NCBI GenBank assembly: GCA_964016885.1
Contig: OZ024751.1
Location: forward strand, 25,792,001-25,856,000
DNA length: 64,000 nt
Source: Eledone cirrhosa
Taxonomy: Eukaryota
Direction of reading: 5' to 3'
Shown: in pieces, positions 5,821 through 44,215 of the stretch
Layout: every line of letters begins with the position of its first letter
Numbering within the stretch: position 1 is the first letter of the stretch
Made by a program: the position numbers and the translations under genes
The notes under the pieces: model-generated
What the model saw: only the letters and a program-made list of their open reading frames with translations
Databases searched by the model: none
What the model was told of the DNA's origin: nothing

Positions 5821-6526
5821 ATGTTACCAAACACTGTTATTTATATCATAATCTAATTAACATATGTTTCATCCGCCTGGGACTCCTCGGAATTAACCAA
5901 GATATAATGACCTCAACAAGTTGATCTTTTCCAGATGCACAATAATGCGTAGAATGTTTTATTTACAAAAAATAAACTGCATAGTCTAATAGGAAATAAT
6001 ATTTACCGCGTGTAGCATGACAGATAATTCACAGTGGCACTTACGTGAATATTTATACATTAAAATAGTCTTGTAATCATAGGCAATGTTGCTTTTTTAT
6101 ATAATAAATTATATATGAATTCCAAAATGTCCAGATGCACAGATCTACGCACAAACACCCATACAATTACACACCCACCCATATACGGACACATCTGCGC
6201 ATGAATGGATAAAATATACATATAAGATATCAATCAGAGAAGCAATTTTACAAATTAAACTTATACCAGACAGACTAAAATAAGAGAGTCTCGCTCATAT
6301 AAATATCTCGCTACCATGGTTTCAAAAACAGAAGAAGCAGTAGCGGGTATTTCAAATCATTGGAACAACCAATACTGTAGAAATGCGTAAAGAGGTATAT
6401 TGATCATGAAGTATACAGAGCATTTCCCGTACTGTCAAAATTTATATGAGTCGGACACTTAACTTAGTCTAACTTATACTCCCCTAACTAGATTTTATTT
6501 TGGCATAAGTTTAATATATAGAGAGA

Positions 6527-6687
<161 letters not shown>

Positions 6688-6766
6688 ATCTAAAAATAAC
6701 AAAACAAATGGCACTCTATGTGGAATAAATATATTAGTTTAACGCTTGCAATAGAAGAATGAGAGT

Positions 6767-6800
6767 CTTAACGTTTCGGACACTAGTCCTTCATCAGAGG
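6767..6800 (-). ncRNA. Minimal PLE-type hammerhead core
   Basis: CTGATGA a GGAC tagt GTCC GAAACGTTA; stem I is weak. A decayed relative lies at about 5448-5478 (+). Confidence 0.55.
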
Positions 6801-7286
6801 ATAGAGTTAGAAATAGAAGATAAATGGAAAGTAAAGAGTGAAAAGAGGAAGGTACGGGGGGAAATGAGAAAAAATTGGGGAGAAAAAACAACCGTGGGTA
6901 TTCAATCGGCCATATATATATATGTATGGGGGGGTATGTGTGTGTCTGGGTGTGGATGCGGGGGGGGGTGTATGTGTGTGTCTGGGTGTGGATGCGGGGG
7001 GTATGTATGTACTCTATTTTGGATCCCGAGAGAGAGAGCTTCACATATCCAGGATAAAGTACGCAATAGTTCAAAGAACAGACACTGTCGGGTATGTTTA
7101 AATCACAGTAGATATGAAATACCCCAACGGCTTATTTTAAATCTACTGTGATTTAAACATATCCGACACTAATTTGCATAATAGAATAAATAAATTTATA
7201 ACCCCACTATCTGAGAGCTTCAAACAGAAATGGTTGCATTCTTTAAGGGTATGTCAATATTTATTTATAAAATTGATCTATATTAT

Positions 7287-7349
7287 ATTTTATCTGATGA
7301 AAGCACACCATAATTTAACTTAGTGTCCTTGAAATATGTATAATGAAAT
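7287..7349 (+). ncRNA. Minimal type I hammerhead, related family
   Basis: ATTTTAT CTGATGA AAG c ACAC...GTGT c CTT GAAATATGTATA|ATGAAAT. Confidence 0.72.
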
Positions 7350-7527
7350 AAATATGGTTTTATAAATATAGTTTCTATTTGTTAATATATCGTATTTTTA
7401 CTCCAATAATTTGTTGAGTGCTTTATATCAGTTATAAAAATATTTGCTTGTTGTATCCCAACAATTTAAATAGAGCTTCTACATATATATATATATAGTT
7501 ATGTAATAAACAACATAAGATAATTAA

Positions 7528-7589
7528 TTCATTTACCAGTGGTTTCTTGAGGACAGATATCTATATCTGTCCTCGGTCATCAGAAAGAA
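7528..7589 (-). ncRNA. Type I hammerhead, same family as 14196, with partial fold-back copy at about 7604-7635
   Basis: Stem II is GAGGACAGATAT/ATATCTGTCCTC, a compensatory change relative to the 14196 copy; also carries GAAACCACTGGTA. Confidence 0.72.
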
Positions 7590-7636
7590 TAGTAAGGAAT
7601 CATTACTATTCTTTCTGATGACTGAGGACAGATATA

Positions 7637-7700
<64 letters not shown>

Positions 7701-7741
7701 GATATTAAACAAATGGACACTATATTTATAAAACCATATTT

Positions 7742-7805
7742 ATTTCATTATACATATTTCAGGGATACCATATTAAAAATATGGCATGCCTTCGTCAGAT
7801 AAAAT
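7742..7805 (-). ncRNA. Minimal type I hammerhead, related family
   Basis: Minus strand: ATTTTAT CTGACGA AGG c ATGCCATATT ttt AATATGGTAT c CCT GAAATATGTATA|ATGAAAT. Confidence 0.75.
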
Positions 7806-7987
7806 ACAATATATAACCAGTTTTATAAATAATTTTGACGTACCATAAATATAGCGACCATTAATGTATGAGGCTGGTTTGGTAGGCTGGTTTAATATCG
7901 TATATCTACTCCAAAAACTTGTCGAGTGCTTTATATCAGTTATAAAATATTTACTTGTTGTAACCCAACAATTTTAAATAAAACTTT

Positions 7988-8028
<41 letters not shown>

Positions 8029-8075
8029 ATAATAATAAATTTGAAAACTAAGATCCAAAGAGGGCTCGATAAGGA

Positions 8076-8136
8076 GTTTTCAGAAGATCCCGTTAAGGGT
8101 GAAAGCAGCGATTCTTTGCTTAAAATTTAATCTGTT
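8076..8136 (+). ncRNA. Hammerhead, CAGAAGA family copy
   Basis: GTTTT CAGAAGA TCCCGTTAAGGGT GAAAGCAGCGATTCTTTGCTT AAAAT; stem I is TTTT/AAAA. Confidence 0.65.
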
Positions 8137-8336
8137 ATTTTAATAAATATATATATGTGTGTGTGTGTGTGTATCAAGTAATACTATGATTGGATTTCAT
8201 ATCATTGTATGTCAATGTGAAATACAACAAAGGACAGATTAAATTGATTTAGCATGTGGACATTATATATAAGATAACAACAATTGAACAATCAACTTTA
8301 TATGTAGCAAAAGCTATCTCTAATACTTTTTGTTTC

Positions 8337-8368
<32 letters not shown>

Positions 8369-9114
8369 ATGTGTACGTGTGTGTACGTGTGTGTGTACGT
8401 GTGTGTGTATACGTGTGTGTGTGTCTGTGTATATATAACCATAGATACAGATACATACATACATGCATATTCACATACATATATATAAAAATATATATAC
8501 ATATATACACATATAAGTATATATACATACAAGCATGCATACATACATACATACATATACACACACAAGCATGCATGCATACATACACAGAAGCATGCAA
8601 GCATACATACATGTACTCGAAATTAAGAGAAAGAGAAACATACATATTCACATACATATATATATATGTGTGTGGGGGGGTGTTAGCGCGTCTGTGCGTA
8701 TGTGCCTATGTTTGTGCGTGTGTGTGCATGAGTGCACGTGTGTATGTGTGATATGTTAGGGGTGGTGGTGGTTGGTGTAACAATGAGAATTTTAAAATAT
8801 TATTAGATGATAAATGAATTGTTTCAATGACGTTAGTCATAGCAACCATTCCGTATAAAAAATCTTTCATATTTGTTTAATGTTGCGTAAAAGTTACAAA
8901 AGAATAAACCTGTTTGTTTAGACAAATATTTCGTCTCCCTTTTTATAGGTAAACACATAAATTGCTAAAACTATGAAATTCTACCTTGTATGGCGACTAA
9001 TATTCAAAACAAAATATTTATGTGACTCCTTTAAAAACATTTGATATATTTTTTTAATCAATGCTCACAAATTTCACAAACACTCACCGAAAAATAAATA
9101 CAGTCACAGCGACT

Positions 9115-9145
9115 GACACACATACACACACAGCTACACACAGTT

Positions 9146-9189
<44 letters not shown>

Positions 9190-10040
9190 CTACACACAGT
9201 TCCACACACACAGCTACACACAGTTCCACACACACACACACACAGCTACACACAGTTCCACACACACACAGCTACACACAGTTCCACACACACACAGCTA
9301 CACACAGTTCCACACACACACACACACACACACAGCTACACACAGTTCCACACACACAGCTACACACAGTTCCACACACACACAGCTACACACAGTTCCA
9401 CATACACACACAGCTACACACAGTTCCACACACACAGCTACACACAGTTCCACACACACACACACACACACACACAGCTACACACAGTTCCACACACACA
9501 GCTACACACAGTTCCACACACACACACACACACACAGCTACACACAGTTCCACACATACACAGCTACACACAGTTCCACACACACACAGCTACACACAGT
9601 TCCACACACACACACACACACACACACAGCTACACACAGTTCCACACACACACACACACACACACACAGCTACACACAGTTCCACACACACAGCTACACA
9701 CAGTTCCACACACACACAGCTAAACACAGTTCCACATACACACACAGCTACACACAGTTCCACACACACAGCTACACACAGTTCCACACACACACACACA
9801 CAGCTACACACAGTTCCACACACACAGCTACACACAGTTCCACACACAGAGCTACACACAGTTCCACACACACACACAGCTACACACAGTTCCACACACA
9901 CACAGCTACACACAGTTCCACACACACACACAGCTACACACAGTTCCACACACACAGCTACACACAGTTCCACACACAGCTACACACAGTTCCACACACA
10001 CACAGCTACACACAGTTCCACACACACACAGCTACACACT
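9115..10040. repeat. Compound minisatellite (CA)nGCTACACACAGTTC
   Basis: About 30 units with variable CA spacer length. Confidence 0.95.
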
Positions 10041-10089
10041 CACAAACAGATACAGTCACAAAGATACATAGTTCCACAGACACACACAA

Positions 10090-10143
<54 letters not shown>

Positions 10144-10239
10144 CCACAGAGATCATACAAATAATTTAATTTTACAGTTCTTCAATAAATTTATTCATAC
10201 AGTGTATCTAATAAAATATCTAAAAAAGATTTACACGTG

Positions 10240-10309
<70 letters not shown>

Positions 10310-10503
10310 TTGAAACACGAAAGCATCAAAAGATCATACTCCATTAAAAAAGATGCACAAAGATACAGTAATGGACTACACATTTCAAAAGTCCCATTTT
10401 CTGCTGAAATGGAAAACACAGAAAAAGCAAAGCAGGTAAAAGTAACTGCAAAGAAAGAACTGCTACAGAAACTGGCTAAGAAATGGCAAGAAAAGCGATC
10501 CCT
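10310..10503 (+). mobile_element. Short fragment of a second R4/Dong-like element after a (TAA)n tract
   Basis: Translation KHESIKRSYSIKKDAQRY...AKQVKVTAKKELLQKLAKKWQEK resembles the segment just before the WxxKxLHG motif of R4-clade ORFs. It starts directly after (TAA)n at 10246-10309. Confidence 0.6.
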
Positions 10504-11602
10504 GCTCAAATTATAATTGATTTGTATTGTTTCTGGGGGTTGAAAATCTGAAAGGAATTTCAAATCTAAATTGAAATGGGAATGTAAAAATATAAAAAAT
10601 ATAAAAAGTAAATAATAAATAATAAAAACAATGAATTCTCATCTATATTGATATTTTGTTTCCCATAATTTCAGATTTTATTTTGACATTGCCGAATTTT
10701 GATTTGAGTTGCAAAATCATTTTCAATGTTATCAAAAAAGAAAGGAACCAATCGTCAAATAAGATTAAGGAAACTATCCTCTCTCAGGTGTTTCCACTGC
10801 AGATCCTATCTGCCGGTCACAATTCCTGACAGAATTTTACGGCTACTCCCCGCCCCTAAACTCCAAAATACCCCCATAAAACAAACAAACAATAAAAATA
10901 TAAAAAAACTCGAAATACCAACCGAAATTCACATTTATTTACAAAATTTCTAATTGAAATTTTGTATTTTCAAAACCAAACTCACACGAAAATCTTAATT
11001 CTGTTTGGTCCCCGATTAATTGACAAAGAATGAAGTTGAATTTTAGGAGAAACAACATAACCTGATGATGTAACTTTTACGTTGAAACAAATCATTTAAG
11101 CATAAATAATTGGAGAAGCAAAGAGTAGGTGGGTGGGTAGGGGTTAGACAGGTCTCATAGAAACTTGATTGATAACTTGTCGAAAAACTCACCCAGGAAA
11201 TTTATAAGATCTTTTGTCTTCATTAATATTATCAACGATTTTTTGAATAGGAGAGTAATGAGCTGCGGCTTTTCAAAATCTCCAAGACCGTAATACAATT
11301 ATTAGTTGAGTGCATGTCTTAAATAATTTATTAACACTCCTAACGCATTGCAGGCAATTGATATTAAATGATTGTCTCTTACAGATATTGCGTGGATATA
11401 GAATGCAGTGGGGTTCTTATCACTTACAGTTCACCTGTTTCAATCCGGATAATTTCAATATCACATTTAAAAGAAACGCATCCATTTCCTTGAAAAAATC
11501 TTCAGTGACTTGCTCATCTTTAAAGAAGTGGGTAGTGGGAGTGAGGGGGTTCATGTTGACAGCATACTTGATCAGGAAGTTCAAGTTTTCACAGGAAGCA
11601 GA

Positions 11603-11991
11603 TAGAATATGTTTATGTATGATAAACACGCATATAGTTTGTCTTTATATATTTTGAGCAGGGTTCAAATCTCAGCTTACGTATAGAATATGTTTATGTA
11701 TAGTAAACATGCATTATAATTTGAGCAGGGATCGTACCCCAGCTAACTTATAGAATATGTTTATGTATAGTAAACATGCATTATAATTTGAGCAGGGATC
11801 GTACCCCAGCTAACTTATAGAATATGTTTATGTATAGTAAACATGCATTATAATTTGAGCAGGGATCCTTACGGGGTCGATAAAATAAAGTACCAGTAAT
11901 GCACTGGGTAATTGCTGGCCTTGTGCCTAAAGTAGAAACAATTATAATTTGAGCAGGGATCGTACCCCAGCTAACTTATAGAATATGTTTA
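11603..11991. repeat. 67-bp minisatellite interrupted by a SINE
   Basis: Unit starts at 11684, 11751 and 11818. Confidence 0.9.
11865..11944 (+). mobile_element. SINE family A 3' fragment inserted in the 67-bp minisatellite
   Basis: Flanked by TSD ATTATAATTTGAGCAGGGATC. Confidence 0.85.
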
Positions 11992-12074
11992 TTGAAACAC
12001 AGAAACCTGGAATGAATGCTACATAACCTTTTACCCGATATCCTAACGACTCCGCCAACATACCGCTTGTTATC

Positions 12075-12265
12075 AATAATTGTTTCTACTTTAGGCACAA
12101 GGCCAGCAATTAACCAGTGCATTACTGGTACTTTATTTTATCGACCCCGTAAGGATGAAAGGCAAAGTCAACCTCGGCGGGATTTGAACTCAGACTGTAA
12201 AGGGACGTAACTATGCTGGAAAGCATGGCGTCCGACCCTCTACCGATACTGCCAATCCACCGCCC
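12075..12265 (-). mobile_element. SINE family A, full length (tRNA-derived head, Meta/MESC-like central domain)
   Basis: A box TGGCAGTATCGG, B box GAGTTCAAATCCC, core GCCTTTCATCCTTACGGGGTCGATAAAATAAAGTACCAG; TSD GTTATCAATAAT. The domain name is from memory. Confidence 0.9.
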
Positions 12266-12523
12266 TAACAGTTATCAATAATGTTATCAATAATGCTGTC
12301 ATCAATACCTTAGTATGGATCGATCATGTCACGTGATCATGTCGCGTGATGTCTCTCCGTTAAGTCATCCATACAAGTAATACTTCAATAGAAAATGGCT
12401 GCTAAGTGGATTAATTAACGATTTGATGACGGTTTGTTAATGACTTAAGTCGTTATAGGAGAGCTCTAATTAGATATAATAATGAATCTTCCTTGGAAGG
12501 GGAGGTTAACGTTGTTGTTGTTG

Positions 12524-12555
<32 letters not shown>

Positions 12556-13006
12556 GGTGGTGGTGGTGGTGGTGTTGATGTTGTTGGTGATAATGGTGAT
12601 GCTGTTGTTGTTGTTAACGTTGATATTGATGTTATTAATGCTGTTGTTGTTGATGGTGATGATGTTGTTGTTGGTGATGATGGTGTTGTTGTTGGTGTTG
12701 GTGATGGTGATGTTGTTTTTGATGATGTTGCTGTGTTGATGGTGATTGTTGTTGCCGTTGTTATTTTTGTTGTTGATGTTGTTGATGTTGGTGTTGACTT
12801 TGTTGTTATGGCTGTTGGGTGATGGCGATATTGTTGTTGTTGTTGTTGATGTTATTGATGTTTTTGTTGTTGTGGAGGATGTTGATGTTGTTGTTGTTTA
12901 TGATAGTGTTGTTGTTGTTGCTGATGCTTTGTCCCAGTTCGTCCAGAGAACAATAGATAAAGTAAATTCACTCAAACCAATGTGTCCTTCCTTCATTATT
13001 ATAGAA

Positions 13007-13370
13007 AGTATCGGTAGAGAGTCGGACACCATGCTTTGAAGCATAGAGTTACGTCCCTTTACGGTCTGAGTTCAAATCCCGCCGAGGTTAACTTTGCCTT
13101 TCATCCTTACGGGGTCGATAAAATAAAGTACCAGTAATGCACTGGGTAATTGCTGGCCTTGTGCCAAAAAGTAGAAACAATTATTATAGAAAGTATCGGT
13201 AGAGGGTCGGACGCTATGCTTTGAAGCATAGAGTTACGGCCCTTTATGGTCTGAGTTCAAATCCCGCCGAGGTTAACTTTGCCTTTCATCCTTACGGGGT
13301 CGTCGATAAAATAAAGTACCAGTAATGCACTGGGATAATTGCTGGCCTTGTGCCAAAAGTAGAAACAATT
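13007..13370 (+). mobile_element. SINE family A tandem dimer
   Basis: Two copies, with ATTATTATAGAAAGTA before, between and after them. Confidence 0.9.
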
Positions 13371-13684
13371 ATTATAGAAAGTAAGCTGTGAATTAAGGAA
13401 GTTTTACTTGTTATTTTTAGAAAGCCAAGTAACCACATAGACAGTCACATATTGTGTTGTTATTGTTGTTGTTGGCGTTGTTTGTAGTTGGGTTGATGAG
13501 GAATGGGTTTTGTTTCGGAAAGATAGCACAATGAGCACAACGAGAAGAAAAACTCGCAAGAGACAGGGAAACACGAAAAAGCAACACTCACTTCTTCAGC
13601 TACCGTCTGTAGGTTACGTAACAGCCATACGATAGGTTGTGATGCATAATGGTGGTACCGATAATACTGCTACATCAGTGTTTA

Positions 13685-13785
<101 letters not shown>

Positions 13786-13792
13786 TAAAATA

Positions 13793-13868
13793 ACAGATTA
13801 AATTTTAAGCAAAGAATCGCTGCTTTCACCCTTAACGGGATCTTCTGAAACTAAAAAAATCCATCTGT
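13793..13868 (-). ncRNA. Hammerhead, CAGAAGA family copy
   Basis: Near-identical to 39678-39753; adjacent to a (TA)n tract. Confidence 0.62.
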
Positions 13869-13983
13869 GAACGCAGAAGTAAATATTTCAAGAACGGATA
13901 AAAATGAACATAATACGTCATTATTTGGAGCGCTGAAAACAATTATACCCAAAGACAAATATATATATATATATATATATATA

Positions 13984-14152
13984 TTTAGGAAATATGAACG
14001 TGAGGCTGAAAAAACGGGCAAAAAGGGTTTAGGGGATTGGCTTTTGCTTCTGTATATTATATATCCCTACAATTAATTTAGCTGTATATATATTTTTTTT
14101 CCCTGAACCCTATTTGCCCGTTTTTTCAGCCTCACTTTCATATTTCCTAAAT
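13984..14152. repeat. Inverted repeat adjoining hammerhead 14196
   Basis: TTTAGGAAATATGAA.GTGAGGCTGAAAAAACGGGCAAA recurs as its reverse complement at about 14100-14152. Confidence 0.7.
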
Positions 14153-14195
14153 TTTATTTTCAAATCCATATTTAACAAAAACACCATGTTATTTA

Positions 14196-14257
14196 TTCAT
14201 TCTGACGACTGAAGACAGATATAAATATCTGTCTTCAAGAAACCACTGGTAAATGAA
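14196..14257 (+). ncRNA. Type I hammerhead with long stem II
   Basis: TTCATT CTGACGA c TGAAGACAGATAT aa ATATCTGTCTTCA a GAA ACCA c TGGT A|AATGAA. Confidence 0.78.
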
Positions 14258-14360
14258 ATAATTATCTTATGTTGTTTATTACATAACCAATAAGCTCTGT
14301 AGCCTACATAGAGGACTCTTTTTTCCTGTACCTTTCCGACGGAAATACTTCATTTATATA

Positions 14361-14471
<111 letters not shown>

Positions 14472-15058
14472 ACATATATATCAAAACTGGTGTGTTATCT
14501 ACCAGTGTAATTAAATCAACTGAATTACCCCACAAAATATGAGATGTGGGTGTAAGATTACGTTTTTTGAAAAGTAAAGTTGGCAGTACCATTAATATTT
14601 TCGGAAAATAATACATATATATATGTGTATGTGTATGTGTGAGTATGTGTGGGCGTGCGTTGGTGTGCATGCGAGTGTATATAGATCGATATAATTCTGT
14701 TTATTCGGATAAAATTCATATCTTTAACAGCTGTTGTAGGACTTCATCGAATGAAAACAACAAAAACAATATGGTTACATCTGCTAAAGTTTCTAAAGTG
14801 AGGCTAAGAATATTTCATATATTTAATAGTCAAAATAATCCTTACACTCTTTAATGGACAACAGTTATATATATATATATATATAAGGAAAAAAAGATGA
14901 AATCAAAATTACATTTTCGATTTCTCTTTTTTTCCTTATATATATATATCAAAAGTTTAACAAGGTTCATTGATTAATCAATAAATAAAGTTTTACAATA
15001 GATTAGAAGCACTCAACAGTGGTATGTGGGCACAGTTGAGGTATGTCAGACATCAATC

Positions 15059-15124
15059 TATTTTATCTGATGAGGACGTACTGATGAAATAGCTCAGTGC
15101 CTCTGAAATATGTATAATAAAATA
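15059..15124 (+). ncRNA. Minimal type I hammerhead, same family as 18559
   Basis: Same core and stems, inside a TA-flanked insert at about 14950-15160. Confidence 0.78.
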
Positions 15125-15186
15125 TATTTGATCACATGAATGTCTATATTTATTAATATTTTGAAGTAATATATATATATATATAT

Positions 15187-15417
15187 AACGGCGATGAATT
15201 AGTTTTGCGAGGTTTTTGTACTATACGAACATGCCAGACAAAACACAACGGTAACATAGACAACATAGAAGTTAGAATAATATCTAAACATAGAAATGAC
15301 CCAGCAGATAGGCAAATCAGAGAGACCAGCGAAATAGAACTTAGAAGGCCAAGGCTAAACAGAAAAAATGAATGCAATAACAACACCCAAACAAACAACA
15401 CTGACCTAAGAGAAGTA

Positions 15418-15460
<43 letters not shown>

Positions 15461-15940
15461 ATACATACACAAGCACAATAACAACAAACACATATAAACA
15501 CACACTAGTAAACTAAGATAGAATACATTAACCAATACACAGTCACCCAAACAAGAACACACATCAAACAAAACAGTATACACACACGCAAACGCATGCG
15601 CAGAGAGGACACAAAAAAAATAAACAAATAAATAAATAAATAAACAGACTAAATAAAGATGGCGTAAGCATACAATGCAACGGGAGGAAACATAATAGCA
15701 ACACTGACGATGTTGCAGATGTGCAACGAAAGAACTTTGTTAGACTATATATATGTGTTTGTGTCTATATTGTATCTGTATTTTTGACCGTTGGTCAGTC
15801 AATGGCAACATTGAGGACCGAATAAATTAAATTAACCGATATAAAAGACACAGAAGCGAAAACCAACCAAACAGTGAGTGTGTTCTGTTATTAATTCTGG
15901 CAATATTATTACACAAATATGACCCTTCCCAAGTATAACA
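15187..15940 (+). mobile_element. 3' end of a Penelope-like element: GIY-YIG C-terminus, 3' UTR and pLTR with hammerhead
   Basis: ORF 15205-15420 contains H...IEVRIISKHRNDPADRQIRE..EI..RRPRLNRKNE, a PLE endonuclease C-terminal pattern. Same-strand hammerhead at 15700-15741. Homologous pLTR copies at 44211-44510 (-) and 48875-48988. Confidence 0.75.
15700..15741 (+). ncRNA. Minimal type I hammerhead in PLE pLTR
   Basis: AACA CTGACGA t GTTGCA gatg TGCAAC GAAAGAACTT|TGTT. Confidence 0.75.
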
Positions 15941-15957
15941 TTATCTATATATATATA

Positions 15958-16206
15958 TAGGACCCCGACGGCTGAGCTCAAGCCGTTTCGACGGCTAATT
16001 CTGGACTACATGAAAATGTTTATCCTGGTAAAAAAAAATGTTCATCCTGGTAAAAAAATGTTCATTTAGTCCAGAATTAGCCGTCGAAACGGCTTGAGCT
16101 CAGCCGTCGGGGTCCTAGTCGTTCCTATTACCCACTCTACTACCCTAAGTATTGAGTACTTTGGTGCGTTATGGTCCATCTGGTTCCTTACCACATTTCC
16201 TTCGTT
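15958..16206. mobile_element. TA-flanked fold-back insert, same family as 49638
   Basis: Arms about 15958-16010 and 16067-16118, separated by a duplicated ATGTTyATCCTGGTAAAAAAA spacer. Confidence 0.7.
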
Positions 16207-16271
16207 ATATATATATATATAGTTCAAAAGGATAAATAAACAAACAAACGCATGAGTCAATAGTGTGTGAA

Positions 16272-16344
<73 letters not shown>

Positions 16345-16494
16345 ATATATATAGAGAGAGAGAGAGATAGATATATGTATGTATATATATCAGACGGCAA
16401 CTATTTCCGTCGTAGAACACCAGCGATTCAATTCGGATTTAGCTGTTGAAACGGCACGAGCTACCGTCAGGATTCCGAATTTTTCATATATATA

Positions 16495-16555
<61 letters not shown>

Positions 16556-17055
16556 CGTGGGTAATATCGGGGTGGGGGTCAACTCAGTTATAAAAGATAC
16601 TCGATACACTATTAGAGTTTAAGCATCAATATCTAATATACCGTAGAAATGGCTCCTACAAAACTAGAACTGTTTCGTTCGCATGAATAGATATATGTGC
16701 GGGCAAGTGTACAAATATTCACACACTCTCACAAATATATATATATATATATGATCAGCATCTCTGCGTTCTGAGATTAAATCCTACCGCGGCCCACTTT
16801 GCCTTTTTATATTTTTGGGGTCGATAAATAAAGTACGAATCTATTGCCGGTGCACCCCTGTCTCTTTCAAGCTGATACATTTTGGATGTTCTGCTAAAAA
16901 GAAAGGAGGCTGTGTTTTCTAGCAACTGCGTGAGAACCTAAATCCCGTACCACTGATGTACTACCAAGTCATACTTGCTTGCGAATGGCGACTGCAGTTT
17001 AGTTTTTTCACACAAAAAACACAAAGAAATACACGTACACATACACACACACACG

Positions 17056-17088
<33 letters not shown>

Positions 17089-17101
17089 GTATTATATATA
17101 T

Positions 17102-17132
<31 letters not shown>

Positions 17133-17151
17133 CATATATGTATGCATGTGA

Positions 17152-17187
<36 letters not shown>

Positions 17188-17539
17188 TTGTGTGTGTTTG
17201 TGTCAAGACTAAAACTGTAAACATCAGAGAAAACAGATATAGCGGTGTCTTCAAACAAAAAATACCTGGTGGCATTTATTCCGCCACAGTTGCACAGTCT
17301 CTACTTTGTTACATTCGACATCAGCAATGCAATGAACAAGTTAATGGATCGTTTGGAATAAATTAACGAAATAAAATACATGATATATAAGCACATTATG
17401 TCACCATATTGCTATTTTTCTGTTTGTGATTATATTTCTGAACTCCATGAATATTTGAATGGATTTTTAACTCATAATTATAAACATGACCGAATATATC
17501 TGATGTAAAAATGGCGTGTATGTATATATTGTATATATA

Positions 17540-17554
17540 TAGATAGATAGATAT

Positions 17555-17636
<82 letters not shown>

Positions 17637-17637
17637 T

Positions 17638-17679
<42 letters not shown>

Positions 17680-17680
17680 T
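17540..17680. repeat. (GATA)n microsatellite
   Basis: Seen directly. Confidence 0.98.
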
Positions 17681-17756
17681 TTATATATACAACTTCGGTT
17701 GTACTCATGATATACTTTTATATATATTTATATATATACATAATATATATATATAC

Positions 17757-17857
<101 letters not shown>

Positions 17858-18180
17858 CAGAATTATATACTTATACCTATAAATATACATACACATTCAT
17901 ATAAACATAAATACCTGCATGCGTGCATACATACACACATACATACATACACACATACACACATACATACATACACACATACATACATCCATACATATAT
18001 GTTAGATCAGTATTTAAAGCTAGTTACTATTACAGCTAGAATAACTGACACAATATTCCGTCACCACGTAATAATATAGGATTTTATTTATCTTTATATA
18101 AAGTGTATTTAAGCATTCTTAGTCGTGTTAAGTATTAAACATACAATTGTATGAAAAAACTTATGTTCCAATGTACGTTA

Positions 18181-18255
<75 letters not shown>

Positions 18256-18345
18256 AAGGTTAAACAAGGTTCAATGAATAAATCAAAGAATGAGTTTTAC
18301 AATAGATTGGAAGCACTCAACAGTAATGGTTTTCCGGAGTTATTA

Positions 18346-18673
18346 ATATTAATTCAAAATATTAACAAAAATAGACATTCGTGTGATCAAGTATATTTTA
18401 TTATACATATTTCAGAGGTACTGAGCTAACTTCAACAGTACGTCCTCATCAGATAAAATAAGATGATGCATGACATACCCTGACATAGTAGATGGTTAAG
18501 ATTCAGTCATGACTGAATCTTAACCATCTACTATGTCAGGGTATGTCATGCATCATCTTATTTTATCTGATGAGGACGTACTGTTGAAGTTAGCTCAGTA
18601 CCTCTGAAATATGTATAATAAAATATACTTGATCACACGAATGTCTATTTTTGTTAATATTTTGAATTAATAT
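18346..18673. repeat. Spacerless palindrome of about 328 bp (PLE pLTR fold-back)
   Basis: Centre ...CAGTCA|TGACTG... at 18509/18510; arms match by eye; the insert is bounded by (TA)n. Confidence 0.92.
18559..18625 (+). ncRNA. Minimal type I hammerhead ribozyme (mirror copy at 18394-18460, -)
   Basis: TATTTTAT CTGATGA GGA c GTACTG-loop-CAGTAC c TCT GAAATATGTATA|ATAAAATA: 8-bp stem I, canonical core, near-palindromic short stem III. Confidence 0.82.
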
Positions 18674-18730
18674 ATATATATATATATGCCCGTGTACCTT
18701 TGTGTATATAGTGCATAGACAGTTAGTTTT

Positions 18731-18790
<60 letters not shown>

Positions 18791-18897
18791 TTATATATAT
18801 ATCGAATTGCGATCTTCTAGATCCGCTATTGCTTGCAAGAAATAGTATTGCTACATACTAATTTATGAGTCAATATATTTATCTCTATACACGCAGA

Positions 18898-18944
<47 letters not shown>

Positions 18945-18947
<3 letters not shown>

Positions 18948-19068
18948 CACTGTTATCTTTTATACCATAAAATATACGAACGAAACTGTGTTAATATGTA
19001 TATATAAATATTATATAAGACATAATTATATCATTATGATATATGTATATTTATATCACATATAGATA

Positions 19069-19162
<94 letters not shown>

Positions 19163-19180
19163 TATATATATATTTATATT

Positions 19181-19233
<53 letters not shown>

Positions 19234-19365
19234 CACTGTTATCTTTTATACCAACAAATATACGAACGAAACTGTGTTAATATGTATATATAAATATTAT
19301 ATAAGACATAATTATATCATTATAATATATGTATATCTATATCACATATAGATATGTGTGTGTGT
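18945..19365. repeat. Direct duplication of about 130 bp of unique sequence between TA tracts
   Basis: TCGCACTGTTATCTTTTATACCA... at 18945 and 19231. Confidence 0.9.
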
Positions 19366-19689
19366 ATATATATATATATTTATATTTACATATATATATA
19401 TATATATAAAAATATATATATTTATATATATATATGTATATATATATGTGTGTGTGTGTGTGTATAAGAGAGAGATTATAATATTTACAGCGCTATTGCG
19501 TCGTAGCGACTTCCAATACATAACAAATAGACACACTATCTCTTATAGACACCAGCATATCAAAAAATTGCATTTTCTGAAAGCGCTATTGATTTTTATG
19601 CCTCTATATATATATGGCTATATTTCTGTGTATTTACTGATAGTATTTTAATATGTTACGTACCGGCATATATTAGAGTCACCAATATT

Positions 19690-20440
19690 TGAAAATGTTC
19701 CCTTTAGACATGTTTATGTATCAATTTTTGATGCTATTTGTCTTCCAAACATTTTACCTGTTAAATAGAAGGCCTATAGCGATATCAATATTTGAATAAC
19801 TTACTGTAGAACGAATCAATAATAGTGCGTTTGTAAATTTATACGTTATCACCTTCAATATATTGACATAGGATATTTGAAAAACCTCAAAATCCAAACA
19901 CGAAATCCTTACAAGGAGAAGTGTTTGTAATTCGCTCTTATCATTTTAGTGATTCTGGGTTTGTGTCAAACTTTTCAAATTGTAAATCATTCAAACGTCT
20001 CGATAAATCGTAAAATCTCTTAACTCTTGCTCTAGATGCTAAACTTATTATACATAGTTCCTCATTTTTAAAGATATTGCTTTCAAATATCATTTAGCCT
20101 AGGGATTAACGTACTTCACCGCATTTCAAGATACACAGATTGTTTCTCTTCAGTGATTACTGGTCATCCTATTTTCTAATCCTATTGGTGTTTTACTCTA
20201 ATTGTTGGATCGTCAGACAAGAGTATTGTAGGATAATTCTGAGAGTGTGCAGATGAGACTCCAGATAATAAAGCTCACCACTTAGCCATAATAAATATGG
20301 AACTAGCTGTTGCAACAGCAAGGTCTCAGGTGTCAGTTCCTGATTTTATACAATATAACCATACCCTACTACCTCAAGCATCGTGTACTCTCTGGTGTAA
20401 TGGTTTAAAAAGTTTCAAAATGATTCCATCCATATATATC
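19690..20440 (-). mobile_element. Possible decayed Gypsy pol remnant (RNase H to integrase)
   Basis: Broken frames give, in the expected order, KPL, YGYIVyKSG, DDPTI..G*P (GWP-like) and MFGRQIASKID. Confidence 0.3.
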
Positions 20441-24190: not shown

Positions 24191-25155
24191 GAAAAACAAC
24201 CTACACAAATACGTGACTGATAGTAAGGAGCCAATGCTCAGAACTGTACTGAAGGAGGGGACAATAGACCAGGAGATGTCCAAGGAGGAAATAACATCAA
24301 GGAGAAAGAGCAGCCTTCAGGAAAAATCCCTTCATAGTACCTTCTTTGAGAAAACTGAATTCAGAGATCCACAGACATGGAACTAGTTGAAAAGAGGAGA
24401 CCTTAAAAAGGCTACAGAAGGAATGTTAATGGCTGCGCAGGAGCAGGCCCTCAAAACGAAGTGGTTGAAACACCATATTTACAAGGAGGAGGCTAGCCCA
24501 CTGTGCAGGATCTGTGGAGAGAGAGAGGAGACTGTGGCTCACATTGTATCCGAGTGTAAACACCTATCCCAGACTCACTATAAGGGCTGGAGACATGATG
24601 TGATGGGCAGGGTGATCCACTGGCACCTATGCAAAGTAAACAATTTACCACATTCTGAGAAGTGGTATGAGCATAAGCCATAGTCGGTGATAGAAAACGA
24701 TCAGGTGAATGTGCTGTGGGATTTTAGGATATAGACGGACAAGAAACCGGAACACAATAGACCTGACCTGGTGGTTTTGGACAAGGAAAAAAGATCGTGC
24801 CTGATTGTGGATGTGGCCTGCCCATTCAACACGAGAGTGCAAGAGAAGGAGAGGGTTAAAATTAACCGATACCAGGACTTAAAGTGAGAGGTAAAAAGGA
24901 TTTGGAACTGCCATGAAGTCAAAGTGGTCCCGATTGTCATAGGCGCACTAGGTACTATCTCAAAAGGTTTCCAGGGATGGTTAAAGAAAATTGGCCCCGC
25001 CACGCTTTTTGGAACGCTTCAAAAGGCATGCTTGCTGGGAACAGCAAGAACCCTCCGATATGTCCTGAATATCTGAGGCTGGAGGTAGTGGCTTGATATT
25101 CATTTCAACAAACTTTCCAGTTAACTAACATCAATGACTGAGACTCAAAGAACAA
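24191..25155 (+). mobile_element. 3' part of an R4/Dong-clade non-LTR retrotransposon (CCHC knuckle + restriction-like endonuclease)
   Basis: One frame from 24192 to 25076 with four in-frame stops reads ...WN*LKRGDLKKATEGMLMAAQEQAL...CRICGEREETVAHIVSEC...RHD...WDF...NRPDLVV...IVDVACP...PIVIGALG...LQKACLLGTARTLRYVL*. Preceded by (TAA)n at 24083-24190 and followed by a short UTR and AATAATAATAA. Confidence 0.92.
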
Positions 25156-25183
25156 TAATAATAAATATAATATAATATAATAT

Positions 25184-25437
25184 AATTGTTTCTACATTTG
25201 GCACAAGGCCAGCAATTATCCAGTACATTACTGGTACTTTATTTTATCGACCCCGTAAGAATGAAAGGCAAAGTTAACCTTGAACTGAGAATGATAAGGG
25301 CCGTAACTCTATGCGTCAAAGCATGGCGTCCGGCCCTCTACCAATACTGCCAATCCACCGCTGTCTTCAGAAATAATTGTTTCTACTTTAGGCACAAGGC
25401 CAGCAATTATCCAGTGCATTACTGGTACTTTATTTTA
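25184..25437 (-). mobile_element. SINE family A copy plus a second partial tail
   Basis: Copy at 25184-25361, linker GCTGTCTTCAGAAATAAT, tail fragment at 25375-25437. Confidence 0.85.
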
Positions 25438-26779
25438 TATATATAATGTGTTGCCATTACACCAATGCCCCACCCATGCTTTCTTGCATTCCATTAGAGG
25501 CTATATAACCACATGTATATAAATATATATATAGACGCACACAAACACACACACACATATAAAAATATATATATATAAGTGTGTATATATATATAAGTGT
25601 ATATATATATATATATATACACACTTATATATATACACACTTATATATATATATTTTTATATATATATACGTATACATATACATGTATATAAATATATAT
25701 ATATATAAAATATTAAAAAAATAATGAATAAAACAAAGAAACAGTTCCTTATATTAAACAAAAAAAGTTCATTATTTAACGATCGTTTCTAGGACATATA
25801 TGTGTTAGAATTGGCATGCATATTCAAAAGATCTATGTACAAAATTATACAAACTATCAAGGAGAATATACATACCATCACATATATATGCTGTCTTCAG
25901 AAATATATATATATATATATATATAGTCAGTAAGGAATGGATATGTTTGCATGTGTCTAAGTGTTTGTTTGTGTGACTATGTTTGTATACATATATATAC
26001 AAGTAGAGTAATTTATTTTCTCTTTTAATTTCATAGGATGGAACATATTGAATTCATTCGAATATAGAATTATTGTTTGCACAAGTTCTCACATCCCCCA
26101 GTCACTCAATACCTCTATGGACAATCGTTTAATACAAAACACAGAGCACACACAAGAGAAAAGGGGAGAAAGCATAGAGAAAATCCACAAAGTGTGTAGA
26201 TAGAAACCAAATAAATTTAGTCTAAATCACTCCTACTTCTATAACAGGTTTTCGTTGCAAAACCTACGATATTATAGTAACTGGATACCGAAATTTCTGT
26301 TATGAAAGCAACGGGCGAAAGTTTAATGAATTTCCGTCATTTGATATCCGCCATGTTGAAAGGTTACACGGGTTGGTTATGTCAAGCAATGTTGTTATTC
26401 AACACTCCAGAAGATACCATATGAATGTAAAAAGTGTTATATCTTACGCCAGTCTTCTGCCAACGATATTGGATTGGGTCTAGTCGATCAGCGGAGAATG
26501 GATTTTACCATACCGGTTTCGTTCTCATTCAAATATCAGGTTGTCTATGTTGTTGTGTAAGTGAAAGTCTGGGTATGTACTGATATATACATACATACAT
26601 ACATATATACATACATACATACATACATACATACATACATACATACATACATACATGCATGCATACATACATACATGCATGCATACATACATACATACAT
26701 ACATACATACATACATGCATACATACATGCATACATACATACATGCATACATACATGCATACATGCATACATACATGCA

Positions 26780-27180
26780 TGGTGGCTGCCAACTCGTTTT
26801 CGAGTACGGCCACTACTTTATATCCATGTAGAAAAACCCCTACCGATGCGCTGAACGAGTGTGGCTTTTTAGTCCAGCCAGCGACTTGAACACTCTGGTA
26901 CAAACACTACACTTGTGACAATTATTGACACATAATGCTGGGCCCATGGTACCATGTGACGACAAGTGCAGAGAGATCTCCAGATATAAATCAATGCCTG
27001 TGCCGTGAAGCTTTTATAGTGAGCAAAGGCACTGCACAAAGCCAGTCCCACTCTCTTAACCAAGATGATGTTTACCAAAAAGAAGAACAAGTCAACATCA
27101 TTGGATACCATCAGGGTTGCAGGTGTTATATCAGAGTTTTCCTTCTCCTAGAATTCTGCCTTGACAAAGGCTAAGGGGTC
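26780..27180 (-). mobile_element. Family C copy, 5'-truncated
   Basis: The near-identical ORF-track translations at 26869-27174 and 51656-51961 show the homology. Confidence 0.75.
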
Positions 27181-27232
27181 ATCTCTATACATGCATACAT
27201 ACATACATGCATGCATGCATACCCATATACAC

Positions 27233-27317: not shown

Positions 27318-27324
<7 letters not shown>

Positions 27325-27697
27325 ATATTTTGGGAGGGTCATGTTGCCAATAAAACCACACACACACCTTTTGGTTTTCACTTCAATTTATTATAAATTT
27401 CCGGTTGGTTGGTTCGATAACCAGAAGGTTGATTATATATTGTTAAAGCTCTTTCGTCACACATTATGCAACCTCCATAGTGACTAGGTTTTTATTTTTG
27501 TGTGTATCCCCTTTGTTCTGTCCAACACCATCTTGATTTTGTGAGTTCACAGAATATGTGAGGAAAGATCTTTGACAATATATAAACAACCTTCCAGTTA
27601 TCGAACCAACCAACCGGAAATTTATAATAAATTGAAGTGATAACCAACAGGTATGTGTGTGTTTTTATTGGCAGCATGGCCCTCCAAAATTATAACT
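27318..27697. mobile_element. TA-flanked inverted-repeat insert (MITE-like or PLE fold-back)
   Basis: Diverged inverted arms of about 150 bp. The terminus TTATATTTTGGGAGGGTCAT matches the pLTR termini at 44211 and 48937. Confidence 0.65.
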
Positions 27698-27845: not shown

Positions 27846-28034
27846 GCGGTGGATTGGCAGTATCGGTAGAGGGTTGGACGCCATGCTTTGACGCATAGAG
27901 TTACGGCCCTTATCATTCTGAGTTCAAATCCCGCCGAGTTTAACTTTGCCTTTCATCCTTACGGGGTCGATAAAATAAAGTACCAGTTATGTACTGGGTA
28001 ATTGCTGGCCTTGTGCCAAAAGTAGAAACAATTA
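27846..28034 (+). mobile_element. SINE family A, full length
   Basis: TSD ATTATTTCT(G/A)AAGACAGC. Confidence 0.9.
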
Positions 28035-28291
28035 TTTCTAAAGACAGCATATATATGTGTAGGTATGTATATTTCCTCTGATAGTTTGTAAAATGTTTAC
28101 ACAGATCTATAAGATATACATACCAACACACACATATATATATCCTAGAAACGATCGTAAAATGGTGAATTTTTTAATATAAGGAACTGTTTCTTTGTTT
28201 TTATTCATTGTTTTTATTAATATATATCTATATATATATATATATATAGCCATATATGTCTATATCTATATTTATGCCTATACATCCATAA

Positions 28292-28478: not shown

Positions 28479-29406
28479 CCTACGATATTATATAATATAT
28501 ACATATTTATATGTGTGTGTGTGAGTGTGTATGTATATATGTGTGTGTGTGTGTATGTATATATATATGTGTGTGTGTGTGTGTAGTCAACTATATGTTT
28601 CCAAGTCATGATCCACCTGTCATCTATCAAGCATTGCATATCTAGCTTTACACTATCCAATGTGTCACTCACTTCTAAAGACGGTAGACTGTAATTTAAG
28701 GGAAAATTGACTGCTGGTTCTAGCAGGTCGATTAACTATGTACAGACATCATCAATTGCATATCGAATATACGTCTAATCCTTACAAAAGTGCCACACTG
28801 AGTGAAAGGGTGCGTGTTAAATAGCAATGTCTTTCTGGTTTGTAAGATATTTATGACTTGTTTTCAACTCAATAATACCGATGCAATGTCATAGAATCAG
28901 ATTGTATATGCAGGATGAAAGACTTTGCTACTTGATAATATACATTGCCGCGTAAATCAATACACGATCAGTGAACTTAACAGTGAATAAGTTTGCTTTT
29001 TTAACACAATGATACAATTTTATATCGATCTAAGTGTTTGAACTTTATCACATGATTACAGCCAACCAAGTACAACAAAGCAATTTAACATCATCATTTA
29101 TGTTGCTAAACGCCTTTGAACAAACTAAATATTGCTCAAGTCATAACATTACATTTTCCCTTTCAAATGGATCTTTTGATTGATTGAAATTATTTCTGAT
29201 TAAGGCACAGGGCCAACAATTTAAGGGGAGTGGGAAGTCAATTAAATCGACCCAAGTGCATTCTCTTCGATGCTAAATTCCGCCAGTTGCAGATTGCGCG
29301 TCAACATGAGATAATTTTCTCCACAAAGTTCGATCACCAGCAGCAGAGTTTAAAGAGCAAAGATCAAGTCCAGTCCATAAGTTGACATTATCAAGCCTTG
29401 TATTAT

Positions 29407-29750
29407 TGGTACTTTATTTTATCGACCCCGTAAGGATGAATGGCAAAGGATTTGAACTCAGAATGTAAAGGGCTATAACTCCATTCCGCAAAGCATAGTG
29501 TCCGACGCTCTAACTTTGCCTTTCATCCTTACGGGGTCGATAAAATAAAGTACCAGTAATACACTGGAATAATTGCTGGCCTTGTACCAAAAGTAGAAAC
29601 AATTATTATACGAGGATTGGCAGTATCGGTAGAGCGTCAGACACCATGCCTTGCAGGATATAGTATTGGCCCTTTACGTTCTGACATCAAATCCCTCCGA
29701 GGTTAACTTTGCCCCTTCGGGGTCGATGAAATAAAGTACCAGTAATGCAC
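29407..29750. mobile_element. Cluster of three SINE family A fragments in both orientations
   Basis: Minus 29407-29510, plus 29511-29607, plus 29615-29750. Confidence 0.8.
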
Positions 29751-35150: not shown

Positions 35151-36382
35151 AAACGATGAAGTTATCACAGACCGTAGACCTAGTTCGAATGCTTACCACC
35201 GATAGGATTACTGCTAAAAAGCTAAATGTATCTAACGGTCACATGGATGTGTTAAAATGGATGATGGATTAAGTCAAAAACTGTATCTAGGACAATGTCC
35301 AATATCTTTTTCTATTATAAGATATTCTGCTGCATTTTGAGGAATATTTGACTGCTATTTCTAACATTTGGAGTGGTTACATCGAGACTCCTTCGGTTGT
35401 TTCAAGTATATGATTGTTTGTACTTCATTTATCATAAATACAGAAATTACTACATAATATTCCAGACAGTTCAAATGATGATAACACTCTGCTGTAAAAT
35501 AATGACATTGTACCCAATATAACTAGACATTTCTTTGTTCTTTATTCGTCTGTATTTATATGGAGTCTATAATATAGATTCTACTCATGTACAGCCATTA
35601 CATTTCTACTCCTTTACATAATTATATTGTCTTTGTTTTAATAATATCAAATCTCGCATCTAGACAATTATTCTAGACACTTTTTTTCCAATTTTCCAAC
35701 GTTTTCTAAATGAATTTCGTACGGATATTGCAATGCCAATTTTAGTGAGTTGAGATGTAGTTAAATTAGTCTTGATAGTTGAGATAGGGGAGAGAGGGAA
35801 AAGTTGAGATGGTGTTCAGGAGTGCAAATTAAAATCAATTCAACCCTACATATATTAGATTTATCCCTCCCAGAGTACAGAAAATTCCGATCGACATCGT
35901 CGGATTTGAAAAAGAGGACCGAGTGTAGTGACTGGTCTAAGTAATGTAAATGATTTACAATAGCTCTCTACTAATGGTGACGTCCTGTCTTTCACATCGT
36001 TCATTACTGGCAAAAGTTAATAAGAGGTGCTTCAGTCGCGGGATAAAAGCCCGTTCCCCAGTAATAACTAATATTAACACAAGGCCAGCAAATTTTAGAG
36101 GAAGACAGCTGATTAAACTAACTCCATCCTCACACCAATTGACTTGGAACACTATCGATTCCTTCGGCGAGTATTCCAATTATTTGGCCAGCGGAATATG
36201 ATATTAACGTCCATGGGACTGAGCATTTCATAGACACGTGCACTCTTAACGTGCACTCTTAACGTAGTTACTCTGTAACAAGACGGGCCTCTTTAAATTA
36301 CAGTTGCAACTCAAGTCCACCAGCTGAGTGGACTGGAGCAGCATAATACAAAATGTCTTGCTCAATGACAAAACGCACCATT

Positions 36383-36679
36383 TGCAGTATCGGTAGAGGG
36401 TCGGACGCCATGCTTTTACGCATAGAGTTACGGCCCTTGCCATTCTGAGTTCAAATCCTGCTGAGGTTAACTTTGCCTTTCATCCTTACGGGGTTGATAA
36501 AATAAAGTACCAGTAATACACTGGGTTATTGCTGACCTTGTGCCAAAAAGTAGAAACAATTATTTTATCAAATTCCACCGAGGTTAACTTTGCCTTTCAT
36601 CCTTACGGGGTCGATAAAATAAAGTACCAGTAATACACTGGGATAATTGCTGGCCTTTTGCCAAAAGTAGAAACAATTA
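36383..36679 (+). mobile_element. SINE family A, one near-full copy plus a tandem 3' half
   Basis: Core and tail are each present twice. Confidence 0.85.
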
Positions 36680-39334: not shown

Positions 39335-39600
39335 AGTAAAAGCGAAGTAGTTTCAGATGTTCAAGTCCTTTAATAATAATGCTGTGATATATATTTCAAT
39401 GACGACACTGGCCACACTGTTCTGTGTGCGAGTGTCGTGACATCATCAGACAGCTAGTTACATAATAAGGTTGTTTCCGAGGCAATCCAAATTGAATCGA
39501 CATGGGAACGGATGAAGTTCGTGCTTTTGGGTTTTTCATCCGTTCCTATGTGGAAAAAGTACGTTGAGTGCTTGAATTGAATTGCATCAATGTTTACCCT

Positions 39601-41188: not shown

Positions 41189-41196
41189 CGACTTAC

Positions 41197-41227
<31 letters not shown>

Positions 41228-41242: not shown

Positions 41243-41370
<128 letters not shown>

Positions 41371-41414
41371 TTTAGGAATAACCAAAGAGTGCTTAGAAAT
41401 ACATTGTTTTATTT

Positions 41415-41459
41415 GCTAACAATGTTTCATCCATACCCTATGGCAGGGTTCATCAGAGC
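41415..41459 (-). ncRNA. Hammerhead-like motif inside fold-back insert 41367-41592
   Basis: GCT CTGATGA accctgccatagggtatggat GAAACATTGTT|AGC; stem II pairing is ambiguous. Confidence 0.5.
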
Positions 41460-41689
41460 TTATAAACAGAAATATATCAAACGTTGCAGGCTCATTCGAG
41501 CTCAGTCATCAGAACAAGGAGAAATGACAAGTAGGGGGGTTCCAAGGACAGTGCTATATTTCTAAGCACTCTTTGGTTATTCCTAAACTTATTACGACTC
41601 TGTAGTATACTAGCTATCATACATTGAGCTAAAACCACACTGCACATTAATATACTTGTCAACGAATCTATATATATATATATATACAC

Positions 41690-43716: not shown

Positions 43717-43794
<78 letters not shown>

Positions 43795-43825: not shown

Positions 43826-44215
<390 letters not shown>

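Follow-up and report, generated by a model that had tools for sequence, protein, structure and literature searches.

The feature at the centre of this analysis is a perfect palindrome at 18346-18673 of the window, the whole 64-kb stretch of DNA that was analysed. The segment equals its own reverse complement with 0 mismatches over 328 bp, exactly as an earlier note on this DNA had described; its centre falls between 18509 and 18510 (CAGTCA/TGACTG), and pairing stops precisely at 18346 and 18673. It is 30% G+C and folds far more stably than shuffled sequence (z = -37). The window contains 1868 spacerless palindrome centres with arms of at least 10 bp, all but five of which consist of (TA)n, and the next longest among those five has 29-bp arms made of microsatellite. 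By a wide margin, 18346-18673 is therefore the longest non-microsatellite perfect palindrome of the window. It is only part of a larger insertion, 18253-18673. The palindrome had been placed inside a (TA)n tract, and this holds for its right end, which abuts (AT)9, but not for its left end, where 93 bp of element precede (TA)27. The insertion and its target are composed as follows.

18199-18252, no strand: (TA)27, the part of the (TA)n target to the left of the insertion; (CT)9 lies before it at 18181-18198
18253-18345, minus strand: 93-bp 3' tail of the element, running on from the left arm as far as the distal 3' terminus
18312-18320, minus strand: tail motif TTGAGTGCT, 60 nt before the TA tract, common to the tails of other families
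18346-18509, minus strand: left arm, a 5'-truncated pLTR body of 164 bp, the tail-bearing copy
18394-18460, minus strand: minimal type I hammerhead, predicted cleavage 3' of A18402
18507-18512, no strand: inversion junction, self-complementary hexamer TCATGA with zero spacer; a single strand folds with a 4-nt loop
18510-18673, plus strand: right arm, a 5'-truncated pLTR body of 164 bp, tail-less, ending at the proximal 3' terminus
18559-18625, plus strand: minimal type I hammerhead, predicted cleavage 3' of A18617 (H17 = A)
18670-18687, no strand: right half of the (TA)n target, (AT)9

The last 4 nt of the right arm also belong to the TA tract, and the closing TAATAT of the arm is microhomologous to (TA)n. 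Divergence between the two arms is below 1.8% at 95% confidence, indicating that the event is recent or that the arms have been homogenised. A Pfam scan of 150 of the 251 non-repetitive frames of at least 45 aa revealed no host exon in the neighbourhood of the palindrome. A mir-279 match at the palindrome centre was rejected (43.6 bits against a threshold of 56), and the weak Rfam matches in 6000-20000 were regarded as miRNA-type hairpin noise. Just to the right of the palindrome, a 286-bp tandem duplication with TA tracts at its bounds occupies 18905-19444.

The relation of the 93-bp tail to the arms was established from other copies in the window.

14951-15168, no strand: sister insertion from the palindrome's family, with a TA tract on either side, recognised by alignment and folding
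7216-7483, plus strand: related family, collinear body and tail with hammerhead C3 at 7294, showing the native orientation of the tail
7699-7990, no strand: related family, inverted insertion with a tail-less body at 7699-7875 (minus) and a tail at 7895-7986 (plus)

On the minus strand, the left arm and the 93-bp tail align collinearly through their junction with the related copy at 7286-7456, and the 93 bp are thus the element's own downstream extension. The tail also matches 14951-15020 at 86%. The earlier note had listed a non-palindromic copy at 14950-15160; it is indeed a copy of the family (15040-15168, 89% identical; 14951-15020, 86%), but not a plain monomer. It is an inverted insertion with non-overlapping arms, in which an inverted partial tail at 14951-15020 (minus), the 5' 70 bp of the copy, is followed by a tail-less hammerhead body at 15040-15168 (plus), and a short hairpin lies at the junction, at about 15012-15040. 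The insertion at 7699-7990 is built in the same way. No other copy in the window extends over the native sequence upstream of the palindrome centre, and a search of bacterial and archaeal genomes with the palindrome family pattern gave 0 matches. A fold-back at 7498-7640 likewise carries a hammerhead (C3 at 7583, minus), its second arm stopping inside stem II; it has a family copy at 14194-14355, and its helix III resembles that listed for Hydra-1_oBim.

In all five hammerheads of this family group, the distance from C3 to the TA tract was either 99, 103 or 104 nt, where the tail is lacking, or 190 or 201 nt, where it is present. The clustering of these distances in two classes indicates that the family group has two discrete 3' termini. 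The tail motif recurs beyond this group: the pattern TYGAGYVCT was recorded at 7414, 7922, 8069, 15016, 16152, 18320, 39564, 49693 and 50410, in the tails of at least four otherwise dissimilar families, and 9 of its 11 matches lie 33-61 nt before a TA tract against a background of 7%, a comparison that is partly circular since the pattern was derived from these same tails. We regard TYGAGYVCT as a candidate recognition signal for the RT or the endonuclease. We found no description of the tail motif, or of spacerless PLE palindromes of several hundred bp, in the open-access literature.

Hammerheads were present on both strands of the palindrome, at 18559-18625 (plus) and 18394-18460 (minus), as had been reported. 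The plus-strand motif has the core CUGANGA ... GAAA ... UH in type I topology: stem I pairs 18559-66 with 18618-25 (8 bp), CUGAUGA occupies 18567-73, stem II spans 18574-18605 and comprises 9 bp with a C-C mismatch, GAAA lies at 18606-09, and helix III (18609-16) consists of 8 self-complementary nucleotides. Helix III is short and of the dimer type, with a computed self-duplex energy of -2.2 kcal/mol. A loose core pattern was found 9 times in the window against 0.94 expected, and a strict structural scan gave 5 hits, all in this family group, against 0 in 50 shuffles. The hammerhead scans were not exhaustive, one having missed 15067 and that for C3-to-TA distances having missed candidates at 6797, 7583 and 41456 that the loose pattern picked up. 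In stem II, 6 of the 9 pairs are altered on both sides and 75 of 76 cells remain paired, in an alignment of only 4 sequences. The G10.1-C11.1 closing pair is replaced by G-U in two of the four motifs, including that of the palindrome, and by A-U in the other two; many Hydra motifs carry U before GAA according to the supplement of PMC8557442, and we therefore did not take the missing pair as excluding a hammerhead. Rfam hammerhead models had no match at gathering threshold in the window, none of the 119 weak Rfam matches in 6000-20000 was a hammerhead, and the motif folded by itself is no more stable than shuffled sequence (z -1.3). Minimal dimer-type hammerheads are described in PMC4209133 as not cleaving as single motifs. 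By analogy, hardly any activity is to be expected of the palindrome's hammerhead in monomeric form.

The window contains one PLE gene.

39963-41197, minus strand: 5'-truncated, frameshifted gene for an RT with C-terminal GIY-YIG, of Hydra-clade PLE type, assigned from homologues and motifs

Since Pfam returned nothing for this gene, it was identified through homologues and motifs. It has 114 homologues at E <= 1e-20, one of the four homologues tested matched the RT profile, and it carries YRDD, CxCX5C, CxxC..E and CxH; judged by eye only, it lacks CCHH. Among the 114 homologues, 111 have DKT/S and 76 have RWK/R. The corresponding section of PMC8557442 (section 11) gives RWK, DKT, CxCX5C, CxxC/CxH and the lack of CCHH as marks of Hydra-clade PLEs. 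The gene sits in TA-rich repeats and, by its 3' end, is a member of another family than the palindrome. That other family has a hammerhead-like fold with a core of CAGAAGA (A at position 4) and a long helix III, of which four copies occur (8081, 13847, 39732 and 57148); the core is possibly inactive or a variant. The 114 PLE proteins match only 39963-41197, and no RT gene of the palindrome's own family was found attached to it or elsewhere in the window. The gene shows that Hydra-type elements were active here, but it is not the parent of the palindrome.

The PLE origin with inverted pLTRs that the earlier note had proposed is supported by the family alignments, the collinear tail and the published PLE layout, and it is very probable that the insertion is a real PLE fold-back. 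From sequence features, it probably belongs to the Hydra clade. Because the Hydra gene of the window has a different 3' end, this assignment rests on hammerhead form, target and spacing. The element inserted into (TA)n, where any target-site duplication would be hidden; according to the supplement of PMC8557442, 20 of 21 and a further 6 of 6 families in its lists prefer this target. From the start of stem I to the element end we measured about 115 and 208 nt, matching the two classes of hammerhead-to-3'-end distances in the same supplement, 87-130 nt (12 of 24 Hydra entries) and 150-210 nt (11 of 24), with one of 425 nt; these 24 omit a row at the 5' end of Penelope-18 and a minus-strand row. 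The spacing is thus Hydra-like. The supplement also lists an octopus family and Penelope-13_HM, the latter with an inverted 5' copy and a hammerhead on both strands. In its available text, the 11-mer of the palindrome-family hammerhead was absent and 8-mers of the tail had unrelated matches only.

We examined how far such fold-backs extend across the window, which is microsatellite-rich, animal-type DNA. Of the 69 segments of 80-1500 bp that TA tracts delimit, 13 carried an inverted repeat with a score of at least 50, whereas none of 138 shuffles did. In 11 of these 13 the end of an arm falls no more than 5 nt from a TA tract, where 2.7 were expected. A one-sided extension of 39-97 nt was seen in six (18350, 49913, 49721, 15960, 41369 and 43831), the other seven being less clear. 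Arm identity ranged from 88% to 100%, with the older ones at 88-95%, and the spacers measured 0, 1, 1, 3, 8, 11, 32, 66, 81, 83, 155, 342 and 361 nt. Spacers of 11 nt or less, present in 6 of 13, have P values of 1e-3 to 1e-5 under four simple independent-truncation nulls, a significance that is overstated if some short-spacer repeats are native hairpins. One of these insertions is likewise a hammerhead palindrome.

49856-50301, no strand: second back-to-back hammerhead palindrome, of an unrelated family, with a 1-nt spacer

Its 389-bp palindrome at 49913-50301 has arms at 49913-50106 and 50108-50301 that match at 193 of 194 positions, with one arm mismatch; a 57-bp tail is present on the left only, and the hammerhead is compact and Hydra-like. 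The fold-backs at 15960-16205 and 49640-49841 belong to one family and turn at nearly the same position. They have different duplicated fillers (16022-16053 and 49777-49784, respectively) and tails of identical length on opposite sides, and within each insertion the two arms have variants in common by which it differs from the other insertion. Separate events with one template each would be expected to give such insertion-specific variants. In four insertions (14951-15168, 7699-7990, 8025-8153 and 41369-41668) the arm without a tail exceeds the one with a tail in length. Hairpins were predicted at two of the three asymmetric junctions folded, 15012-15040 and 39500-39554, and none at the third, 7860-7910. 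Further TA-bounded inverted repeats lie at 1042-1511, 1959-2731, 13985-14150, 27322-27696, 41369-41668, 43792-44099 and 57079-57217; they vary in age and spacer, and in most of them no hammerhead was found. The palindrome is thus less singular than the earlier note had supposed, such fold-backs being common in the window.

Other contents of the window were surveyed as well. The 150 of 251 frames tested gave Pfam matches only to zf-RVT (24387-24680) and C2H2 fingers (26843-27013 and 51817-51987). The weak zf-RVT match on the plus strand is probably a LINE remnant, and the fingers fall in weak C2H2 frames, one in each member of a 448-bp dispersed repeat pair with 95% identity (26739-27186, minus; 51644-52091, plus). 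A dispersed repeat of about 190 bp, presumably an octopus-type SINE-like element, occurs in more than a dozen copies with 85-96% identity, some in tandem or inverted pairs and with no tRNA call, at 331-456, 12070-12266, 13007-13375, 25174-25438, 27846-28040, 29399-29750, 36380-36689, 45133-45307, 47611-47818, 56746-56963, 58805-59012, 60128-60347 and 62222-62422. Tandem arrays were observed at 46867-47516 (59 bp x 11) and 11648-11867 (67 bp x 3). No tRNA or tmRNA was found in the window. A scan for sigma-70 promoters (4 found, 6.7 expected) was discarded as inapplicable to an animal.

Published systems place the insertion among PLEs. PMC8557442 describes an inverted 5'-truncated copy beside the element, a tail of 30-40 bp at one end and microsatellite or (TA)n targets, and PMC3846280 (2013) reports abundant, mostly head-to-head inverted structures with junction palindromes, read as self-priming. 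As in the inverted-pLTR, EN-containing PLEs of these accounts, a head-to-head, inverted 5'-truncated copy is combined with a one-sided tail, a junction palindrome, an AT-rich target and a hammerhead within the repeat. In contrast to them, there is no ORF between the arms of the palindrome, both arms are truncated at the same base, so that the palindromic overlap is 328 bp against junction palindromes of 18-38 bp in the rotifer, and the tail is 93 nt against the published 30-40. The insertion shares with Hydra-clade PLEs (including Hydra-1_Obim and Penelope-13_HM) the (TA)n target and a hammerhead that lies roughly 100 or 200 nt before the 3' end and combines the core CUGANGA-N ... UGAA with a self-complementary helix III, and with Penelope-13_HM an inverted copy that places hammerheads on both strands; it differs in the longer stem II with a constant C-C mismatch and in that no cognate ORF was found. 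The minimal type I PLE hammerheads have the same core, topology, long helix II and short palindromic helix III suiting dimers, whereas the present motif has G-U at 10.1-11.1 and an 8-bp stem I, and its cleavage is only predicted. Pairs of hammerheads on opposite strands, 100-700 bp apart, are recorded for Schistosoma in PMC4209133. Like the animal non-LTR retrozymes, the insertion is a small, non-coding, hammerhead-bearing PLE derivative. Retrozymes, presented in bioRxiv 10.64898/2026.07.22.740005 as tandem PLE derivatives, are head-to-tail and allow dimer cleavage and circles, whereas no tandem repeat extends over the present element and its head-to-head arrangement blocks both. The accessible parts of PMC13282606, on octopus repeats, make no mention of hammerheads, palindromes or Hydra. 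Most likely, the palindrome is a clean, symmetric, ORF-less example of the published PLE arrangement and not a new system.

We propose that the palindrome arose by twin priming combined with a fold-back, a full mechanism to which we give slightly better than even chances. The element's GIY-YIG endonuclease would cut both (TA)n strands, and each cut TA end would prime reverse transcription on element RNA, one cDNA starting at the distal site (body and tail) and the other about 90 nt upstream at the proximal site (body only). Both cDNAs would be antisense and unable to pair, so that one 3' end would fold back on itself, here at TCATGA, making sense-strand DNA that would anneal to the other cDNA; fill-in would then yield a seamless palindrome. 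No selected function would be required. According to PMC11167929, a PLE protein acts on both strands of AT-rich DNA, cutting as well as extending them, and RT starts at two sites bounding the tail, hammerhead cleavage not being needed; this in vitro work concerned a Poseidon element and not Hydra. Since the protein needs no hammerhead cleavage, an intact hammerhead can be copied. The longer tail-less arm of the four asymmetric insertions calls, barring later deletion, for an RNA-primed tail-less arm; alternatively, these four may have begun as palindromes whose centres disappeared afterwards. Near-zero spacers would seldom result from independent truncation by itself, and the six spacers of 11 nt or less thus point to a fold-back. 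Junction hairpins and duplicated fillers suggest a fold-back of the cDNA 3' end whose sense product annealed to the other cDNA. A fold-back at TCATGA and end-to-end annealing of two cDNAs there would look the same in this insertion because the native upstream sequence is not covered by another copy. Taken as a whole, the description as a real, recent (or arm-homogenised), non-coding insertion, probably of a Hydra-clade PLE, with a twin-priming and fold-back origin is one that we moderately favour.

The earlier note had attributed the palindrome to snap-back priming, an idea already put forward by PMC3846280, in which self-priming on an antisense template is proposed; its interpretation is accordingly partly right and largely known. 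In its pure form, a cDNA primed from the tail end would fold back at its 3' end and copy itself, finally jumping across to the second TA end where a TA-like stretch marks the start of the tail. The zero spacer, the identical arms, the six small spacers and the arm end at TAATAT all agree with this, and together with the hairpins at two of three junctions they indicate that snap-back is probably involved. As the sole cause it is unlikely, because self-copying cannot make four longer tail-less arms without later deletion; moreover, tail-less ends also occur without an inverted partner (the 39677 end of the RT gene), and both-strand extension from two start sites was seen in vitro (PMC11167929). 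That the arms are 100% identical while family copies differ by about 10%, and that the 16.0k and 49.7k members fold back at nearly the same position, might instead reflect a palindrome made or perfected after insertion, by template switch or arm conversion, or retro-copied from a palindromic source. The ends of the palindrome are two element termini and not random points, the 16.0k and 49.7k members differ in junction fillers and insertion-specific variants, and older fold-back arms stand at 88-95%, so that homogenisation is not keeping up; we consider this origin quite improbable. Selection for the hairpin RNA or the cruciform, as a source of endo-siRNA, an editing substrate or a regulatory structure, would fit the duplex predicted below for read-through RNA of either strand and the small RNAs that PLE copies give in the rotifer (PMC3846280). 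It is very unlikely given that similar fold-backs decay in place and that no host exon was found, the 3 of 150 tested frames that match Pfam all lying away from the palindrome.

A sequencing, amplification or assembly artefact also had to be weighed, since perfect identity without a loop is typical of fold-back chimeras. PLE inverted structures are stated to trouble assemblies in PMC8557442. The mirror ends at the tail boundary with different flanks, 11 of the 13 inverted repeats are flush with TA tracts, the arms of other fold-backs range from 88% to 100% identity with spacers of 0-361 nt, and the second palindrome retains one arm mismatch, all of which makes an artefact highly improbable; this indirect evidence argues that the palindrome exists in the animal, beyond the assembly. 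A MITE or Foldback-type DNA transposon with a TA target duplication and a chance hammerhead would likewise be short, non-coding, palindromic and TA-flanked. With its 93-bp tail on one side only, the insertion lacks the terminal inverted repeats that such a transposon would have on either side; the same termini recur in family members whose arms do not overlap, stem II covaries, and the hammerhead sits at PLE-typical distances, leaving this origin extremely unlikely.

Read-through RNA of either strand, in which the antisense arm is made first, is predicted to form a 162-bp duplex of -273 kcal/mol. In the model, forcing the hammerhead fold costs about 107 kcal/mol in the full hairpin and about 9 in a single arm. 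The sequestration of the ribozyme claimed for this locus thus stands on thermodynamic grounds, but hammerheads of this type are expected to cleave barely at all when alone (PMC4209133). The hammerheads, which are of a dimer-dependent type, on opposite strands and buried in the duplex of any read-through RNA, would be passengers. In the DNA, cruciform extrusion of a perfect AT-rich palindrome is plausible.

A more far-reaching joint reading, which we regard as doubtful, is that Hydra-type PLEs would use obligatory two-ended priming with a cDNA fold-back bridge, guided by the tail motif, and would yield self-propagating hairpins. If it were true, TYGAGYVCT, 33-61 nt before the distal start site, would guide integration across unrelated families, and symmetric products would be competent templates, the strand that ends in body and tail beginning with TA homology. 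Hairpin retroelements would then silence their own ribozyme and seed the genome with dsRNA substrates of hundreds of bp; there would be several in every 64 kb, and annotation would probably have mistaken them for MITEs or miRNA hairpins.

For PLEs more generally, PMC8557442 states that how inverted junctions and tails form is unresolved, and the residual interest of the insertion lies in its longer tail, in the tail motif common to several families and in this junction mechanism. The value is in the set: many small, datable insertions of several families, with measurable arms, spacers and fillers and two fixed ends, suffice for a genome-wide test of twin priming versus snap-back. If the host is an octopod, as the repeat landscape and the Hydra families listed in PMC8557442 suggest, perfect duplexes of this kind would be an obvious class of candidate editing or small-RNA substrates. 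They would also lead to false calls of MITEs and miRNAs; the centre of the palindrome itself scores as miRNA-like, below threshold.
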